NCBI RefSeq assembly: GCF_003018255.1
Contig: NZ_CP027440.1
Origin: Escherichia coli
Lineage (GTDB): Bacteria; Pseudomonadota; Gammaproteobacteria; Enterobacterales; Enterobacteriaceae
Strand: one strand, 5' to 3'
Length of the DNA stretch: 64,000 nt
A model generated the notes under the pieces. The model worked only from the letters and a program-made list of their open reading frames with translations, was not told where the DNA came from and did not search any database. Made by a program: the position numbers and the translations under genes. Numbering within the stretch: position 1 is the stretch's first letter; the number at the start of each line of letters is the position of its first letter. This document shows, in pieces, positions 12,146 to 47,518 of this stretch.

Positions 12146-13453
<1,308 letters not shown>

Positions 13454-20830: not shown

Positions 20831-22300
20831 TCATTTCCCCTTCACTGTTGTTTCCGGGGAAATATTTGCTTCATCCCGATATAAGTAGGCACTCTCCCCT
20901 GCCACCTGCCAGAGATGTACTAACGTTGAAAAGCCAACAACACCGTCAGTTTTCAAGTGGTGGCTTTTTTGAAATTGCTTTATTTTTTCTACCAACAAGG
21001 GACGCCACTCTGCCGAAGGTTCTGTCGAAATATGCAATGCGCGGTTTAACATCGTTTCCAGCCAGAGAATCTCTTCCTCGCTGCTATCACGCGTAATGGT
21101 ACTCTCCCCTTCCGGCGACATTTTCCATAACAGAAGATAATCACCCGTCCATACCGACTCAAACCATTGATGTGTCAGCGTCCAGGTTTGCTGCCCTACG
21201 AGGACATCAACGGTAGCATCACCGACGCGAACGACCACAACAGGCAATTTTTTGTCCCCGACTTTAAGCGATGCGATCCAGGGCAAATTCTGATCTACCA
21301 ATGTTTGTAAAGAAGCATTCCCACTTTTACATGCCAGCCCCGCTCTTACTGCCTGATCGCACCAGGCCGAATCAGCTGGGACCTCGTACCCCCATACGCC
21401 GTATAACACGCTTAGCGCCTCACTATCGCGCATCACTACATGAGCAATATCCTTAGTCATATCTTGTTTAACTACTGGCGTTACGGGTACCAGCCACGCA
21501 GGAACGGGGAACGGATCTGTGAAAGAGGACAGCAGTAGCCAACCACAGGTAAGTGCGATAATGGTTCCACTCATCACCACGGCAAGCTGCATTTTCCGGG
21601 GGCGGTTATCACCTAATACGCGGTAAATCATTCGCCAATGTTTTGCAGTGAAAACGCTGGTCTGCTCGGCTTGCTGTAATAAGCTAATTGTTTCGCCGGC
21701 AAGCGCCAGCTTTCTGCGATCTCCCCGACATAATAAAGCTATCCGTTTCAGAACTCTGGCAGTTAAAAGGAGATCGGGCTGGTCAATATTCTGACCTTCA
21801 AGGATGCTTGCCTTAAGCTCGTGCTCCATCAGACGTCCTGTTGAGACAAGTTCAATGCCCTGTTTTTTAAAATCACGTTCGACTTTTCGATCGGGTCTGC
21901 CGATCAGCAAAAATTGACCGTCAGGAATAAGAGATATCGCGCGTTGGAGATCATCAAGTATGCGGCGGTGATTCAGGTGAGCATTTTCAATAATAATAAG
22001 AGGGCAGCGACTATCAGTTCGATGAAGCGCATGCAGTAATTGACCCGCCATCTCATCTCGCGTCCAGGCGCTGTCACGGCAGCCCTGTTCAGCCGCATTA
22101 TCGTCGGTAACGATCCATGCGGCCTTACCTTGCGAGGAAACAACGAGGCTTAAAGTAATCACACGGCGATGTTTATCTTTTTGTAGTTGCTGCGCCAGCC
22201 AGGTTTTTCCACTTCCAGCCTCACCCAACAAATAGCACAGACGCCAGGTCTGACGTTTCTCACGCAACCAGGAAAGAATAACTTCTCTTCTCGTAGACAT
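20831..22300 (-). CDS. gspA: Type II secretion accessory ATPase GspA
   Basis: ORF track 489 aa; Walker A GEAGSGKT near the N-terminus. Confidence 0.9.
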   Translation of the reverse strand: MSTRREVILSWLREKRQTWRLCYLLGEAGSGKTWLAQQLQKDKHRRVITLSLVVSSQGKAAWIVTDDNAAEQGCRDSAWTRDEMAGQLLHALHRTDSRCPLIIIENAHLNHRRILDDLQRAISLIPDGQFLLIGRPDRKVERDFKKQGIELVSTGRLMEHELKASILEGQNIDQPDLLLTARVLKRIALLCRGDRRKLALAGETISLLQQAEQTSVFTAKHWRMIYRVLGDNRPRKMQLAVVMSGTIIALTCGWLLLSSFTDPFPVPAWLVPVTPVVKQDMTKDIAHVVMRDSEALSVLYGVWGYEVPADSAWCDQAVRAGLACKSGNASLQTLVDQNLPWIASLKVGDKKLPVVVVRVGDATVDVLVGQQTWTLTHQWFESVWTGDYLLLWKMSPEGESTITRDSSEEEILWLETMLNRALHISTEPSAEWRPLLVEKIKQFQKSHHLKTDGVVGFSTLVHLWQVAGESAYLYRDEANISPETTVKGK

Positions 22301-22479
22301 AGAACTTCCTGTTTTAATTATTGATTATCCTTAATCATAAAAATAATGTATGCATTTATTAATTAAATACATATTACTAATATAAATAAATTTTGCTTGA
22401 TTCATGCAAGCGGCATTAATACTATTTATACTAACGTCAATATACAACCCACCCAATCTATTTTATTAGAACATACATC
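22301..22479. promoter_or_regulatory. AT-rich divergent gspA / gspC control region
   Basis: 179-bp intergenic region, by eye well over 75% A+T with A/T tracts; divergent gene starts on both sides. Confidence 0.6.
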
Positions 22480-23295
22480 GTGCCCACACTACGCTTCCCC
22501 TTCCATCTGGCGAATCATAATAAAGATGCTGCCATCAATATATTGATTATATTTATAAGCATAGGGTTGATTATTTTTAATGTGAATTATTTCCATACAA
22601 CTATAGTTAAAAATGGACAGATCATTAATCAACCAACAAACGCATTTCAGTCTGAGTTCAGCCTTGCCGCTTTATGGCGTAACGAAAATCATGCTGGGGT
22701 AAAAGATGCAAATCCCGTGGCAGTTAATCAGGAAACACCTAAGCTCTCTATAGCGCTTAATGGCATTGTACTCACATCGAATGATGAGACTTCTTTTGTC
22801 TTAATTAATGAGGGGAGCGAACAAAAGCGATACTCCCTCAACGAAGCCCTTGAGTCAGCGCCGGGAACGTTTATTAGAAAAATAAATAAAACCAGCGTTG
22901 TGTTTGAAACTCACGGGCATTACGAAAAAGTAACTCTCCATCCAGGGCTACCTGACATCATCAAGCAGCCTGATTCAGAAAGTCAAAATGTACTCGCTGA
23001 TTATATTATCGCCACGCCGATACGTGATGGAGAACAGATATACGGGCTTCGATTGAACCCTCGTAAGGGCCTCAATGCATTTACCACCAGCTTGCTACAA
23101 CCAGGGGATATCGCCCTCAGGATCAATAATCTTTCGCTGACCCACCCTGATGAGGTTTCACAGGCATTAAGTTTACTGCTAACTCAACAAAGTGCTCAGT
23201 TTACAATTCGTCGCAACGGCGTACCCCGCTTGATAAATGTTTCCGTCGCGGAACTTACAGGAATGAATGGACAGCGTCATGAAAGGACTCAATAA
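22480..23295 (+). CDS. gspC: Type II secretion protein GspC
   Basis: ORF track 271 aa; GTG start; N-terminal TM segment. Confidence 0.88.
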
Positions 23296-33698: not shown

Positions 33699-33893
33699 TT
33701 ATGCGGACTCCTTAAACTCCGGCAACTGCATTAATTCATCCTCCATCACTTCACGCGCGGCCCGGACACATTTACCGCACTGATTGCCGACCGGAATAAA
33801 TTTTTTTAATTGCTGGAACGAGTGAGGGGAAAACTGGCGCACAGCCTGACGAATTTTTTTATCGCTGATACCATTACAAAGACAAACGTACAT
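33699..33893 (-). CDS. bfd: Bacterioferritin-associated [2Fe-2S] ferredoxin
   Basis: ORF track 64 aa; four Cys (C4, C6, C39, C42 pattern MYVCLCNG...CGKC). Confidence 0.93.
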   Translation of the reverse strand: MYVCLCNGISDKKIRQAVRQFSPHSFQQLKKFIPVGNQCGKCVRAAREVMEDELMQLPEFKESA

Positions 33894-33920
33894 AGAGACT
33901 CCCGTATACTTTCTTCAAAA

Positions 33921-33950
33921 ATAAATGAAAATAGTTCTTATTTCAATTAC
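33921..33950 (-). promoter_or_regulatory. Putative Fur-box-like A/T-rich site upstream of bfd
   Basis: Minus strand gtaattgaaataagaactattttcattt about 30-60 nt upstream of bfd start; resembles the A/T-rich hexamer-repeat Fur consensus. Eye match only. Confidence 0.3.
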
Positions 33951-34023
33951 GGAAAGACTCTTTTTTAAGCAAAGAATAGAAATATGAATAAAAATAATGG
34001 GCTACCAAAAGTAGCCCATTGAC

Positions 34024-34054
34024 AAAAAATGCGGCGATACCGGAAGGTATCGCC
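34024..34054 (-). terminator. Rho-independent terminator after chiA
   Basis: Hairpin ggcgatacc-ggaa-ggtatcgcc followed on minus strand by a 6-nt U-run, 8 nt after chiA stop. Confidence 0.7.
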
Positions 34055-34061
34055 AACACAT

Positions 34062-36764
34062 TTATTGCTTAGTAAACGGCGCGAAGATTTCGCTAAATGC
34101 GTACTTCGGTGCCTGTTCTTTAGTCAGGCCGTGGAATTCCGGAGACAGGTTAGTGCCGCCTGGCAGGTCGCGCGCGATTGACCAGATACCAACCATACCG
34201 AGATTACGCTTCTGCGCATCCTGCATGACCAGACGAGCATCAGAGAGATAGAACACCTCGCCCTGAACGTCGTTCACGCCAACCATCGGCGTGGTACCCA
34301 TCATAGCGTCAATTTCTGCATCGCTCTTATTGGGATGGAGGCCTTTCAATTGTGAATGCAGGTTGGCAATCGCAGACGTTGCACACTTACCGTGAATGTT
34401 CTGGCCTTCGGTATTTGCAGACTGACAAATCGCGTTACCGTAGTCCATTGTCATCACGTTCACACCCGCCAGCTCAACACCTTTCGCTTTGGCATCGCTC
34501 AGGACATTCATCCCTTCCGGCGTCAGGCCAGTCGGCAGAATTGGCAAGGTGTACCAGATAGCAATATCTTTGCCCTCTGACTTCCATTTATCCTGCACTT
34601 TCTTCACAGCAAGGTTACGACGTTCAATAGATGCCTGATCCGCAACCCAGGTGCCTTCGATATCGAAGTCCAGGACTCTGAGGTTCAGGTTATCAACGAT
34701 GTCATAATAATGCTGCATCAGATCGTCTACGTTCTTACAGGAAGCAGCCAGCGGAGCGTTGTTAGCACCACCGATAGACAGCATCACATCGCCGCCAGCT
34801 TCACGCAGAGCTTTGATTTTGCTGTACTGAGCGTAATTCTGCATACCGTAAGCGGTACCCCATGTCGGCAGACAGGTGTTCGCATCTTTACTCACCACAA
34901 ACGCCAGCGTGAAGTGGTTGACGTTATGATTCTTAGCCAGCGCAGCCAGATCCGGGATCGTATTCAGCGTAAAGTCAACATACGGTGCATAAACGTGTTT
35001 CGGCCACGCTTTCTTCGGCGTACCTACACGTTCTTTGGTTCCGGTCCAGTCAACAAAAACACGCCACGGGTTGCTGTCAGAAGGAGAAACTTTCTGCACT
35101 TTACTCTGAGAAATGTAGTTCGCACCGTTAAAGCGAATCAGCGTATCGCTGGCATAAAGCGTTTCTGGATTAAACTGCGGCGCATTATTCAGCTCTTCGT
35201 TGCTATAGCTCTGAGCCTTACCTAACGGCTTCCACGGGCGGCTATTGCTACCGGTGGCGTTTTGGTTCGCAACCAGAGCAGGGTTGTCGCTTTGCGTCCA
35301 GAACAGCGCTTCATAAGCCTGCCCATCAACAACAACGCGATCACCTTTCACGTACACGGTGGAAGCGGACCATGCTTTCGCCGGTTCGTATTTCTTCCAC
35401 GGGTTATCGCCGCCCGGGACAAAGCCCCATGCGTCTTGATCGACAGAGGTTTTATAATGTGCATCGTTATAATCTACGATGCTGTTCGCGCTGTACGCTT
35501 TGCTGGCCTGGAAACCATCCGCAACAATGACGCCGCCATTATCAATTTCACAGGTAGTTGGGTTACCGTACTGACTCATTTCCGCAGCGGTAGCTGTACG
35601 CACGAGACGCCATGGGTTATTGGAGTTTTCTGCACTAGTGCCACGTGGGCAATCTTCAGAACCAACCCACCAGGCATTCTGATAAACATTACCATTGAAG
35701 ATAACATGGTAAATTTCGCTACCTTCCTGGCCACTCCACGCCTGCAGTGAGTAATCGTTACTGCTATCCGCTGGTGTTGATGGCTCGTTATTATCCGGAG
35801 TAGGAGTAACTGGAGTTACCGGTGTTTCCGGAGTTGGATCAACCGGAGTCACAGCACCGCTATTATTATCCGGCTTAACGGAACAGGAACCCGGATTACC
35901 ATACTGGCTGATTTCTGTTGCCGTTGCCGCGCGAACATAACGCCATGGGTTGCTGGCATCGTTTTCTTTCGCATCGCCTGGGCAATTTGCCGCGCCTACC
36001 CACCAGGCGTTCTTATAAATGCCGCCGTTGTAGATAACGTACCATGTAGAAGAACCTTCCTGACCTTTCCAGGCTACGACAGCATAGTTGTCGTTTGACT
36101 TATCAGCTGGAGCTGGCTGAACATCAGGAGCCGGTTTAACGTCCGGTGCCGGTTTCACATCCGGCGCAGGCTGTGGTGCTGAAGTACAGGACTGTGGATT
36201 ACTGGTTTCTGAGATTTCCGTTGCCGTAGCGGCACGAACATAACGCCATGGGTTGCTGGCATCATTGCCTTTCGCATCACCCGGGCAGTTAGAAGAGGCT
36301 ACCCACCAGGCATTTTTATATACCGCACCATTAAAGACGACATACCAGGTCTGACCGCCCTGCTGTTTATTCCAGGCAACTACAGAAGAATTAGACGGAA
36401 CAGTGCCCTGTGCTGGTGTAGCCGAACCGCCATTAGCCGGCGTATTGGATGCAGGCGTATTTGAATTTGAAGAAGATGAGCTGCCGCTCTTTTCGCAGGA
36501 AAGTGTATTGCCAAACTGACTAATTTCAGCAGCTGTCGCGGTACGCTTTAAACGCCATGGGTTAGTTGCATCATTTGCTTTTGCTTTTCCCGGGCAATTT
36601 GTAGAAGAAACCCACCAGGCATTTTCATAAATTTTGCCATCGAAAATAACCTGATATTTATTACCACCTTGTTGGTTATTCCATACTTCCATTGCCAATG
36701 CTGGCAGAGCGGAACACACCAGCCCCATACCAATCATAGATTTAGTAAATATATTTAATTTCAT
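34062..36764 (-). CDS. chiA: Periplasmic/secreted endochitinase with four N-terminal chitin-binding-type modules
   Basis: ORF track 900 aa; signal peptide; four repeated ~65-aa W/C-rich modules (NAWWV...CPG...NPWR), Pro/Thr linkers, C-terminal catalytic domain. Confidence 0.92.
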   Translation of the reverse strand: MKLNIFTKSMIGMGLVCSALPALAMEVWNNQQGGNKYQVIFDGKIYENAWWVSSTNCPGKAKANDATNPWRLKRTATAAEISQFGNTLSCEKSGSSSSSNSNTPASNTPANGGSATPAQGTVPSNSSVVAWNKQQGGQTWYVVFNGAVYKNAWWVASSNCPGDAKGNDASNPWRYVRAATATEISETSNPQSCTSAPQPAPDVKPAPDVKPAPDVQPAPADKSNDNYAVVAWKGQEGSSTWYVIYNGGIYKNAWWVGAANCPGDAKENDASNPWRYVRAATATEISQYGNPGSCSVKPDNNSGAVTPVDPTPETPVTPVTPTPDNNEPSTPADSSNDYSLQAWSGQEGSEIYHVIFNGNVYQNAWWVGSEDCPRGTSAENSNNPWRLVRTATAAEMSQYGNPTTCEIDNGGVIVADGFQASKAYSANSIVDYNDAHYKTSVDQDAWGFVPGGDNPWKKYEPAKAWSASTVYVKGDRVVVDGQAYEALFWTQSDNPALVANQNATGSNSRPWKPLGKAQSYSNEELNNAPQFNPETLYASDTLIRFNGANYISQSKVQKVSPSDSNPWRVFVDWTGTKERVGTPKKAWPKHVYAPYVDFTLNTIPDLAALAKNHNVNHFTLAFVVSKDANTCLPTWGTAYGMQNYAQYSKIKALREAGGDVMLSIGGANNAPLAASCKNVDDLMQHYYDIVDNLNLRVLDFDIEGTWVADQASIERRNLAVKKVQDKWKSEGKDIAIWYTLPILPTGLTPEGMNVLSDAKAKGVELAGVNVMTMDYGNAICQSANTEGQNIHGKCATSAIANLHSQLKGLHPNKSDAEIDAMMGTTPMVGVNDVQGEVFYLSDARLVMQDAQKRNLGMVGIWSIARDLPGGTNLSPEFHGLTKEQAPKYAFSEIFAPFTKQ
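35549..36689 (-). repeat. Intragenic tandem module repeats in chiA (~310-bp period) plus PAPDVK x3 micro-repeat
   Basis: Near-identical DNA stretches, e.g. gcgaacataacgccatgggttgctggcatc at ~35925 and gcacgaacataacgccatgggttgctggcatc at ~36235; PAPDVKPAPDVKPAPDV encoded at ~36115-36170. Confidence 0.8.
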
Positions 36765-36995
36765 TATAATCCCTTGTGACGTAAAAACTGCAAAACAAAA
36801 GTCCTACGCAGGAATTATTTACGTTTTACGAGAACCCTTCAATATGAATTAAATTACGGCATTAAAAATAAGAAAAAAGCCTGACAAAAGAAGCATTTTA
36901 AAAACAGAAACATTCATATTTAAGATATTAAATTTAATTTATATTTTAAATATGAATAATTTATTCGTTCTGACAGTACGAATAAGATATGCAGT
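36765..36995 (-). promoter_or_regulatory. AT-rich chiA upstream/promoter region
   Basis: About 230 bp of very A+T-rich sequence with A/T tracts between tufA terminator and chiA start. Confidence 0.5.
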
Positions 36996-37005
36996 CAACA
37001 AATGC

Positions 37006-37031
37006 AAAAAGGGCGCCGAAGCGCCCTTTTT
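37006..37031 (-). terminator. Rho-independent terminator after tufA (str operon end)
   Basis: aaaaa-gggcgc-cgaa-gcgccc-ttttt, a perfect symmetric hairpin 25 nt after tufA stop. Confidence 0.85.
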
Positions 37032-37055
37032 AATTCGAAACTAATTAACGTGTAA

Positions 37056-38297
<1,242 letters not shown>

Positions 38298-41588: not shown

Positions 41589-41876
41589 TCACCAGGCCAT
41601 CTGGCTGGAGTGCTTAACCGTAAGTCTGACGAAATCAGTATAGTCAATGAGAATGATATCGTTCGAAATTTGACCAGCCAAACCGCGGGCAATAAGGTCT
41701 TCGTTCAGGGCATAGACCTTAATGGGGGCATTACGCAGACTTTCAAGGTAGCGGTTACCGTCAACTGCGGCAGTTACACCATCTTGCAATAATAGCAGTT
41801 CGTCGCCCTCACTTAGCAGGCGCAGCAGCGCAGCAAAATCCGTCAGCCAGGGTGAACGATGTAATGTGTGCAGCAT
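41589..41876 (-). CDS. tusB: Sulfurtransferase complex subunit TusB
   Basis: ORF track 95 aa. Confidence 0.9.
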
Positions 41877-41883
41877 AAACGCC

Positions 41884-42242
41884 TCAAAACCTCAAAATAA
41901 CATCGTAGTTGGCGAGTTCGCGGCGTAAGGCATCTGCTTCGAGCGGCGTGGCTTCGACAACAAAGGGTGTCTGCGGATCTAACCCGCGTTCGCGCAGTGA
42001 AGCCGCACAAACCCAGCACTGTTCAATGTCGTACAGACCCAACAATTTAAAAGTGGCGATGTAATCACGCGCCAGCACTGCATCGGGCTTTTGTCCTGGC
42101 AGCAGCTGAAAAACGCCATCAGCAATAAAGAAGACGGCCAGATCGTCAGTTAATGCGGAAGTTGCCAGTAAAGCATCTAAACCTTCCCGACCAGCAGCTG
42201 TACCATGAGGCACAGTAGAAAAAACAAACGCAATTCGTTTCA

Positions 42243-45712: not shown

Positions 45713-47518
45713 CTACTCAAATTCATCCCAGCCGTCCAGCTGGCGTCGTTCTTGTTGCATTTCACGCTGGAAAATCTCTTCCAGTTCGCGTCGGGCTTCC
45801 CTGGCGCGAGAAATTTGTACGGTGTCGGCATGCATTGGGATGAGCTCCCGCAACATCCGCATATCCAGGCGGCGAAAATGCAGTTGCGCCCGCTGCGCCT
45901 GATGTGGATGCATGCCTAGCGTGACCAGCGTCTTGCGCCCCAGCTCTAACGCACTGGAGAATGTCTCACGAGAAAACTGCGTCACCCCTGCCTGTAATAA
46001 CTCATGCGCCTCCACACGTCCGCGCGCTCGCGCAAGAATATGTAAATGCGGAAAGTGCTGCTGGCATATTTCCACCAGTTTCATGGTGTCTTCCGGCTCA
46101 TTACAGGTAATGACGATAGACTCAGCGGCCTCTGCACCCGCAGAACGTAAAAGATCTACCTGCGTGGCGTCGCCGTAATAAACTTTGTAGCCATATTTGC
46201 GCATCAGGTTAACGGCACTGATATCCCGCTCCAGCACAGTAATGCGCATTTTATTTGCCATCAGCAAACGACCAATCACCTGACCAAAACGCCCGAAGCC
46301 CACGACAATGACCTGCGGTTTATCATCGTTGACCCACGGTTTTTCGTCTTCTTCTTCCGGTCCGTTAAACTGGCGGGATAGCCATTTATCCACCAGCTTC
46401 ATCAGCAACGGCGTGGTCATCATGGAAAGCGTCACCGTCACCAGCAACAGCGCCATCTGGTCGCCCTGGAATAAGCGTTGCGAAGAAGCGGTAGAAAAGA
46501 GCACAAAGGCAAACTCGCCGCCCTGACTCAACACGCCAGCAAACTGCATCCGCTCTGAGCTACGCACGCCATACAATCGCGCCAGCAGATACAGCACGAG
46601 AATTTTCACCGCCACCAGCACAACCACGCTTATCACTACCCACAACAGATGGGTATAAAGCACCCCGAGATTGAGCGACATGCCGACAGAGATAAAGAAC
46701 AAACCGAGCAGCAACCCCTTAAACGGATCGATAGCCGTTTCCAGTTCATGGCGATATTCACTTTCCGCCAGCAGCACGCCCGCAATAAACGTACCAAGCG
46801 CCATCGACAGCCCCAGCGCATCCATAAATAACGCGGAACCCAACACCAGCAGCAGAGTCGCGGCGGTGAACACTTCCCGCACGCCAGAAGCTGCAATAAA
46901 ACGGAATACCGGACGCAGTAAATAACGCCCGCCAATCAGCATGCCGACAAACGCCAGCACCTTCATGCCGATCTTCATCCAGTCGAAATGTTCGTCTGCC
47001 GACCCCGCCAACAACGGCACTAACGCCAGTGCCGGGATCACCGCCAGATCCTGAAACAGCAGTACCGAGAAACCTAACTGGCCGGATTCGCTGCGATTCA
47101 TCCCTTTATCACGCATCAGTTGCAACGCCATTGCAGTTGAAGACATCGCAAGGCCAATGCCACCGACCACCGCCGCCTGCCAGGCGAAATCCGTCAGCAT
47201 CAATAATCCCGCCAGCAACGCCGCGCTTAACAGCACCTGTGCCGCACCTACGCCAAAAATCGAACGCCGCAATTGCCAAAGCTTGGAGGGATTCAACTCC
47301 AGGCCGATGATAAACATCAGGAACACCACGCCGAGTTCCGAAAAGTGGAGGATCTCATCGACGTCGCTAATAAAACCCAGCCCCCACGGGCCAATTGCAA
47401 TCCCTGCCAGCAAATATCCCAACACAGCGCCAATACCCAGCCGCGATGCCAGCGGCACCGCAGCCACCGCCGCGAAGAGAAACAACACTCCTGCGAGTAA
47501 AAAATCGGAACCTTCCAT
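45713..47518 (-). CDS. kefB: Glutathione-regulated K+ efflux system protein KefB
   Basis: ORF track 601 aa; N-terminal polytopic membrane domain, C-terminal Rossmann (GFGRFGQ) domain. Confidence 0.95.

Follow-up and report, generated by a model that had tools for sequence, protein, structure and literature searches.

Results

Organization of the gspA/gspC locus

In the 64-kb stretch of Escherichia coli DNA analysed here, hereafter called the window, the genes gspA and gspC diverge from one shared spacer. The gspA coding sequence (20831-22300, minus strand) is the first gene of the gspAB operon and encodes a 489-residue ExeA-family ATPase with a peptidoglycan-binding domain; its homologs carry the Pfam domains PF13401, PF21327 and PF01471. 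The gspC coding sequence (22480-23295, plus strand) opens the gspC-O operon, and both genes are present in the open reading frame list as well as in the RefSeq annotation. The gspA ATG at 22300 and the gspC GTG at 22480 flank a spacer of exactly 179 bp (22301-22479), as given by the RefSeq annotation of a 100%-identical genome, that of strain 104 (NZ_CP029164.1). The initial annotation, made from the sequence alone, had placed the spacer and both start codons at these very positions. Further genes of this chromosomal type II secretion system (T2SS-alpha) extend on either side, with gspB and the S10 ribosomal operon to the left and gspD to gspO to the right. The spacer, a control region to which no strand is assigned, has been published as bound by H-NS and is identical in extent to the fragment used for SlyA EMSA.

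The same arrangement is observed for E. coli K-12, in which the gspAB/gspC-O region occupies the same locus, between the S10 ribosomal operon and bfr/chiA, with the same genes and the same 179-bp length. The strain of the window is not a K-12 strain. Over 601 bp around the spacer it is 100% identical to strain 104 (chicken) and 98.5% identical to K-12-type genomes, including MG1655. Within the spacer itself a single base differs, at 22353 (C here, T in K-12-type genomes), and this position falls between the -35 and -10 elements of the candidate gspA promoter. Since the spacer differs from that of K-12 by this one base, published K-12 work can be applied to the window; judging from the sequence, K-12 regulation should hold in this strain as well, and nothing suggests that it is regulated differently.

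The two start regions are organized differently. A Shine-Dalgarno sequence, AGGAAG (22305-22310, minus strand), can be read 4 nt upstream of the gspA ATG, and the block to which it belongs, CTTCCTGT, is kept in the closest Escherichia ortholog (L010, see below) and is found as CATCCTGT in the enterobacterial ortholog L011. The gspC gene, on the other hand, starts with GTG (ATG in the ortholog L014) and has no recognisable Shine-Dalgarno sequence in the segment 22459-22482, and yet the context of its start, ATA..TC(G/A)TG, is kept across five lineages in the ortholog alignment. This combination of a GTG start lacking a Shine-Dalgarno sequence and a conserved context suggests that translation of gspC, which opens its operon, is initiated weakly or in an unusual manner.

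An AT-rich patch extends from the spacer into gspC

A and T make up 76.5% of the spacer, compared with 49.4% of the 64-kb window, and a mere 0.08% of the windows of 179 bp reach this level; the value estimated by eye in the initial annotation, above 75%, is in line with this calculation. Such a composition, with A+T far above the average over at least 100 bp, is that of H-NS-type targets. A still higher value, 80% A+T, is obtained for the 80 bp that separate the two candidate -10 elements. The TA-rich runs described previously are also apparent, since the spacer contains 29 TpA steps, at a frequency of 0.163 compared with 0.045 in the window (3.6-fold), about what is expected from the spacer composition alone (0.146). 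As for the A-tracts claimed in the same description, one A5 and three T4 runs do exist, but they are few, short and unphased.

The AT-richness does not stop at the limits of the spacer. The patch covers approximately 22223-22640, that is, about 420 bp with 68.9% A+T, and its downstream part corresponds to the first 160 nt or so of gspC (22480-22640, plus strand; 67.5% A+T). This 5' part of gspC continues the patch and could represent a downstream extension of the H-NS-bound tract. The remaining gsp DNA has an ordinary composition, with 51% A+T for gspA and 49.4% for gspD-gspO. Thus, the AT-richness is a local patch of about 420 bp and not an AT-rich island.

Within the 64 kb, three loci in all exceed 70% A+T, and a single locus other than the spacer is more AT-rich than it, with a peak of 78.2% upstream of chiA. 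This peak, the most AT-rich 179-bp window of the 64 kb, starts at 36812 in the chiA-tufA spacer (36765-37055; AT-rich region 36721-37080). The adjacent chiA gene (34062-36764, minus strand) encodes the endochitinase that is secreted by the gsp system; chiA has been described as another H-NS-silenced gene, and published SELEX data list an RpoS peak for the chiA/tufA spacer. The third AT-rich peak (33847-34033, 72%) overlaps bfd at its 5' end as well as the chiA-bfd spacer (33894-34061, 66.7% A+T).

The spacer has average predicted curvature

The initial annotation regarded the spacer as typical of curved DNA and proposed a curvature prediction as a check. We therefore calculated wedge-model trajectories with the Bolshoy-Trifonov and the AA-wedge dinucleotide angles. 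Control sequences behaved properly, the ratio of end-to-end distance to contour length being about 0.3 for phased A-tracts and 0.98-1.0 for unphased A-tracts and poly(AT). The ratio obtained for the spacer was 0.948 with the Bolshoy-Trifonov angles and 0.975 with the AA wedge, compared with window means of 0.948 and 0.954. Indeed, 39% and 71% of the 179-bp windows, respectively, are at least as curved as the spacer, and shuffling the spacer sequence gives, on average, a more curved path (0.920) than that of the spacer itself. There is also no excess of AA/TT power at 10-11 bp in the spacer, 96.6% of the shuffles having at least as much. Neither A-tracts phased at about 10.5 bp nor a strongly bent predicted axis is therefore present, and the claim of curvature is not supported, as both models give average curvature only.

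Recognition of the spacer as intrinsically curved DNA, through phased A-tracts whose shape and not whose composition would recruit the silencer, had some appeal: H-NS is classically reported to prefer curved DNA, according to PMC2094087, and the spacer does have its A5 run and three T4 runs. However, with ratios close to the window means while the controls worked, with shuffles more curved than the spacer and with no 10-11 bp periodicity, this explanation appears improbable. Since predicted curvature is average and phasing absent, recruitment of nucleoid proteins would here proceed via composition, through the narrow minor groove and TpA flexibility, rather than via a static bend.

Much stronger curvature is predicted elsewhere in the window. 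With the wedge model, the most curved 179-bp windows of the 64 kb are found at approximately 46200-46420, 12940-13160 and 41780-42000, with ratios of 0.74-0.77, and all of them are far more curved than the gsp spacer.

The spacer is conserved beyond the flanking coding sequences

Of 5426 complete E. coli genomes, 3141 (58%) were found to contain the gspA-gspC junction. A more sensitive BLAST search found no diverged copies of the junction in the remaining E. coli genomes, so about 42% of these genomes are without this part of the T2SS-alpha. Among the 3132 genomes carrying the spacer, it is at least 99% identical in 2958; the corresponding counts are 78 genomes for a gspA segment and 3044 for a gspC segment, but these identity bands reflect the haplotype of the window strain and are uninformative about the constraint on the spacer relative to that on the genes. 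In a five-strain alignment, a sample too small to carry weight, 1.1% of the columns vary in the spacer and about 3.5% in the flanking genes.

Two E. coli loci are disrupted by mobile elements or truncated. In strain TL012 (NZ_CP123951.1, 3232-3986 of the retrieved locus L007), an IS1A has taken the place of the entire spacer, together with the 5' half of gspA and approximately the first 60 nt of gspC, which makes this strain a natural deletion of the control region. In the urine isolate E12 (NZ_CM143885.1, 2680-3601 of locus L005), gspD is cut short, with a gene for an ISEcp1-family transposase immediately downstream.

To go beyond E. coli, orthologs were collected by a GspA protein search followed by contig look-ups, which gave four independent loci with the arrangement rpsJ-gspB-gspA followed, across the spacer, by gspC-gspD-gspE. 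The closest of them, L010, has a GspA 75% identical to that of the window, and its protein cluster carries the names of Escherichia ruysiae and of cryptic-clade Escherichia. Two further enterobacterial loci, L011 and L014, have GspA proteins of 45% and 43% identity, and the pair L012 and L013 (42%) belongs to a cluster including a member named Superficieibacter. As called, the ortholog spacers are 154-365 bp long and 63-72% A+T, in loci of 44-55% A+T, and they rank in the top 1-3% of same-size windows of each locus for A+T content; when bounded by the conserved gspC start codon, they measure 143-180 bp. The scan of species-representative genomes with GspA retrieved only two loci, neither of which was retained as an ortholog. 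One (NZ_JAUFQN010000012.1, labelled Flavobacterium paronense CECT 8460) has an E. coli-like gspA and spacer with many single-base indels, and the other (NZ_VLXZ01000212.1, labelled Alkalicoccobacillus porphyridii P16) is a 273-bp fragment of E. coli gspA and spacer sequence; both look like E. coli contamination in unrelated assemblies.

The position of gsp beside rpsJ, in the S10 operon, is kept in L011, L012/L013 and L014, at only 41-45% GspA identity. In this position, an operon that is silent and flanked by AT-rich DNA adjoins one of the most strongly transcribed parts of the chromosome.

Comparison with L010 revealed that the whole spacer (87% identity) is better conserved than the gspA coding sequence (77%) or the 5' part of gspC (73%). 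Moreover, the identity is not uniform, with 89% in the gspA-proximal part and 91% in the gspC-proximal part against 76% in the central part (22347-22386). Since the third codon positions of gspA are only 61% identical between the same two loci, the spacer is, on the evidence of this alignment, under purifying selection.

These data bear on the possibility that the patch is a compositional scar, left by a recent horizontal acquisition of gsp and devoid of any specific regulatory role. The promoter-island study associates the gspA/gspC region with genes predicted to be foreign (PMC3661553), and the limited distribution of the junction among E. coli genomes could be taken in the same sense. Against this, the remainder of the cluster is host-like in composition and the patch covers only some 420 bp; the rpsJ-adjacent arrangement, found again at 41-45% GspA identity and including the Superficieibacter-type locus, argues for an old, vertically inherited location; and the spacer evolves more slowly than synonymous-like sites. 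We thus consider a scar very unlikely.

Candidate promoters face away from each other across the spacer

A pair of -35 and -10 hexamers with suitable spacing can be located in each direction. For gspAB, the candidate sigma-70 promoter TTAATA-17-TATGAT (22334-22362, minus strand) matches 9 of the 12 consensus positions, with an expected start at about 22327. For gspC-O, the candidate core TTGATT-17-TACTAT (22397-22425, plus strand) matches 8 of 12, just below the threshold of the scan, with an expected start at about 22430-22434; an overlapping alternative, TTGCTT-18-TAATAC (22393-22422, plus strand), was also located. The two candidate -10 elements (22334-22339 for gspA, 22420-22425 for gspC) are approximately 80 bp apart. 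Both pairs have a spacing within 16-18 bp and both are weak. Since promoter-like matches in a consensus scan are no commoner in the spacer than in its dinucleotide shuffles (3 versus 2.6), consensus matching by itself proves little, and it is the comparative evidence that carries weight.

In this regard, the block T.ATA.TATT containing the gspC -10 (22417-22426) is invariant in all five spacers of the alignment, across lineages whose GspA proteins are 41-75% identical, and a TTG lies upstream of it at promoter distance in the same five-way alignment. The gspA -10 is identical only in the Escherichia ortholog L010. The assignment of the candidate gspC promoter is thereby well supported by comparison. 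Furthermore, in Shimada et al. 2014 (PMC3946193), the genomic SELEX table for the RpoD holoenzyme gives the same two hexamer pairs for gspAB and gspC, and places sigma-70 promoters on both sides of the spacer, with 'HNS' marked within it. In papers on sigma-54 and on minor sigma factors, the peaks are located inside gspA or gspC or elsewhere, and none within the spacer. Our literature search found no mapped transcription starts for gspA or gspC. The initial annotation had found no convincing -35/-10 pair in either direction; this view is superseded by the 17-bp-spaced pairs, their presence in the SELEX table and the invariance of the gspC -10 among orthologs.

H-NS and SlyA bind the K-12 spacer

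Silencing of the locus has long been attributed to H-NS. An abstract by Francetic and colleagues from the year 2000 reportedly describes the divergent transcription of the two gsp operons as silenced by this protein.

Several later sources are in agreement. PMC5797941, with reference to Francetic et al. 2000, describes gspC-O as 'a cryptic ... H-NS-repressed transcription unit' and flags gspCDEF as H-NS-bound in the Kahramanoglou and Oshima ChIP sets. Silencing of gspAB and gspC-O by H-NS (Francetic et al. 2000) is likewise cited in PMC5797941, PMC2649431 and PMC6302416, and two further papers restate that loss of hns derepresses the K-12 T2SS, with ensuing secretion of chitinase. In the work of Panyukov and Ozoline (PMC3661553), gspA(-)/gspC(+) is one of 78 H-NS-bound 'promoter islands', these being defined by a density of 8 or more PlatProm-predicted start points per 100 bp, maintained over 300 bp or more. 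The corresponding island, 3453428_392, spans 392 bp from the gspA start into gspC (PMC3661553), an extent that matches the AT-rich patch at 22223-22640. Finally, an IPOD-HR preprint shows the spacer as the only prominent peak of non-RNA-polymerase (residual) occupancy in its neighbourhood. The suggestion that this divergent control region is silencer DNA bound by nucleoid proteins is thus borne out by the published K-12 data, namely ChIP, the 'HNS' mark of the SELEX table, IPOD-HR and derepression in hns mutants.

To locate potential binding sites, an H-NS position weight matrix was built from Table 1 of PMC2094087. Two hits of the spacer, 22315-22324 and 22383-22392, belong to the top 0.1% of the window. 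However, 2 hits to this motif (tCGATAAATT) compare with a shuffle mean of 1.47, and 43% of composition-matched shuffles have at least 2. The best H-NS-motif match of the neighbourhood is located inside gspC, where the palindrome TCAATATATTGA (22535-22546, both strands) scores 9.03 on both strands, again in the top 0.1% of the window, and is one mismatch away from the proV high-affinity H-NS site TCGATATATT. All these hits, including the palindrome, are possible nucleation points only. The sequence thus seems to favour an affinity for H-NS through composition rather than a demonstrable nucleation site.

SlyA also binds to this region. Its apparent Kd for the 179-bp gspA-gspC fragment in EMSA is about 50-100 nM, and its over-production increases gspCDEF expression 2.4-fold (PMC5797941). 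The EMSA primers TC59 and TC60 of that study map to 22301-22323 and 22454-22479, that is, to the two ends of the spacer. The site proposed in its table, TTATATTAGTAA (22374-22385, minus strand), is of the TTAN6TAA type and lies 79 bp upstream of gspA. Since spacer conservation is lowest around this site (76% identity to L010 in that segment) and the site itself is not kept in L010, its exact position is uncertain.

One could argue that the AT-richness of the spacer is merely the ordinary composition of intergenic DNA carrying promoters, and that gsp is weakly constitutive with no dedicated silencing. Intergenic promoter DNA is generally AT-rich, the hexamers are weak (8-9 of 12) and the H-NS-motif hits do not exceed the compositional expectation, all of which is compatible with such an explanation. 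Nevertheless, 76.5% A+T is extreme even among the intergenic regions of the 64-kb window, in which only three loci exceed 70%, and the published ChIP, IPOD-HR and expression data tie the spacer to H-NS, so that the absence of dedicated silencing seems highly unlikely. It is hardly credible that gsp is controlled by a small RNA, a structured leader or a small protein specified by the spacer. Mechanical ORF prediction does give one frame of 41 aa on the minus strand (22331-22456) and another of 49 aa on the plus strand (22397-22546), and a hairpin-like inverted repeat, GCTTGATTCATGCAAGC (22395-22411), can be found. However, Rfam gave only a chance-level microRNA match (E = 0.31, 21.7 bits versus a gathering score of 74), folding of the predicted leaders does not exceed that of shuffled sequences (z = -0.90 and +1.08), a change of CAAGC to CAACC disrupts the repeat in the E. 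ruysiae-type ortholog, and both ORFs begin with TTG in 76% A+T DNA.

Both of these elements were also discarded as features in their own right. The ORFs were dismissed as chance occurrences, and the inverted repeat was rejected as a terminator because it overlaps the -35 element, has no T-run and is not conserved in L010.

Discussion

The spacer between gspA and gspC is the known H-NS-silenced control region shared by gspAB and gspC-O of the T2SS-alpha, very probably with two weak sigma-70 promoters arranged back to back and with SlyA relieving the silencing in part. The basis of this reading is twofold. The position of the region, its composition, its candidate promoters and the constraint acting on it come from the present analysis, whereas H-NS dependence, in vivo occupancy and SlyA binding were established by others in K-12.

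The following sequence of events can be proposed. The AT-rich, TpA-rich tract, together with its continuation over about 160 nt of gspC, would be bound by H-NS, with StpA as a likely partner. H-NS would then polymerise over 22223-22640, thus covering both promoters and the gspC start. The resulting nucleoprotein filament or bridge could occlude RNA polymerase from both promoters or trap it there, and, as a consequence of such an occlusion, the secretion genes would remain silent in ordinary culture. SlyA, a counter-silencer of the MarR family bound in the central part of the spacer, may loosen this silencing to some extent. Three parts of this scheme are inferred: that silencing works by occlusion or bridging, that the gspC 5' patch contributes to it, and the precise positions at which transcription starts.

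The locus can be compared with better characterized targets of H-NS. The proU (proV) system, in which H-NS acts via regulatory elements both upstream and downstream, appears similar at the sequence level, as its AT-rich tract also spans the promoter and runs into the first gene, and its high-affinity site has a near match in the gspC palindrome. Unlike in proU, two divergent promoters share the tract at gsp, and to our knowledge the gsp locus is under no osmotic control. The hlyE (clyA) and fimB genes are counter-silenced by SlyA, and gsp resembles them in that SlyA binds it in vitro, with a proposed TTAN6TAA-type site at 22374-22385. On the other hand, the effect of SlyA on gsp is modest and the proposed site is in the least conserved part of the spacer. 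We know of no physiological signal inducing gsp. A second type II cluster of E. coli, the T2SS-beta of enterotoxigenic strains (yghJ-pppA-yghG-gspC-M), differs from the T2SS-alpha by its locus, genes and promoter architecture, and it, too, is reported to be H-NS-repressed (Yang et al. 2007).

Silencing through composition alone would not require a slowly evolving spacer or an invariant gspC core. The conserved blocks, among them the segment from the -10 to the GTG (22427-22479), might thus contain a binding site for a dedicated regulator able to switch on the T2SS-alpha and chiA under some natural condition, and the gspC palindrome could act as a downstream silencer element of the proU kind. 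We put this forward tentatively, as a conjecture that is rather doubtful at present.

The silencing of both gsp operons has been known since 2000 and has been repeatedly confirmed at the genome-wide level, so the present analysis brings no new biology in this respect. Its additions are minor, namely a predicted curvature no more than average, a deeply conserved gspC -10, the constraint on the spacer and the extent of the patch into gspC. The H-NS-silenced control region explains how laboratory E. coli can possess a complete type II machine and yet not secrete through it: a short AT-rich spacer keeps both gsp operons off.
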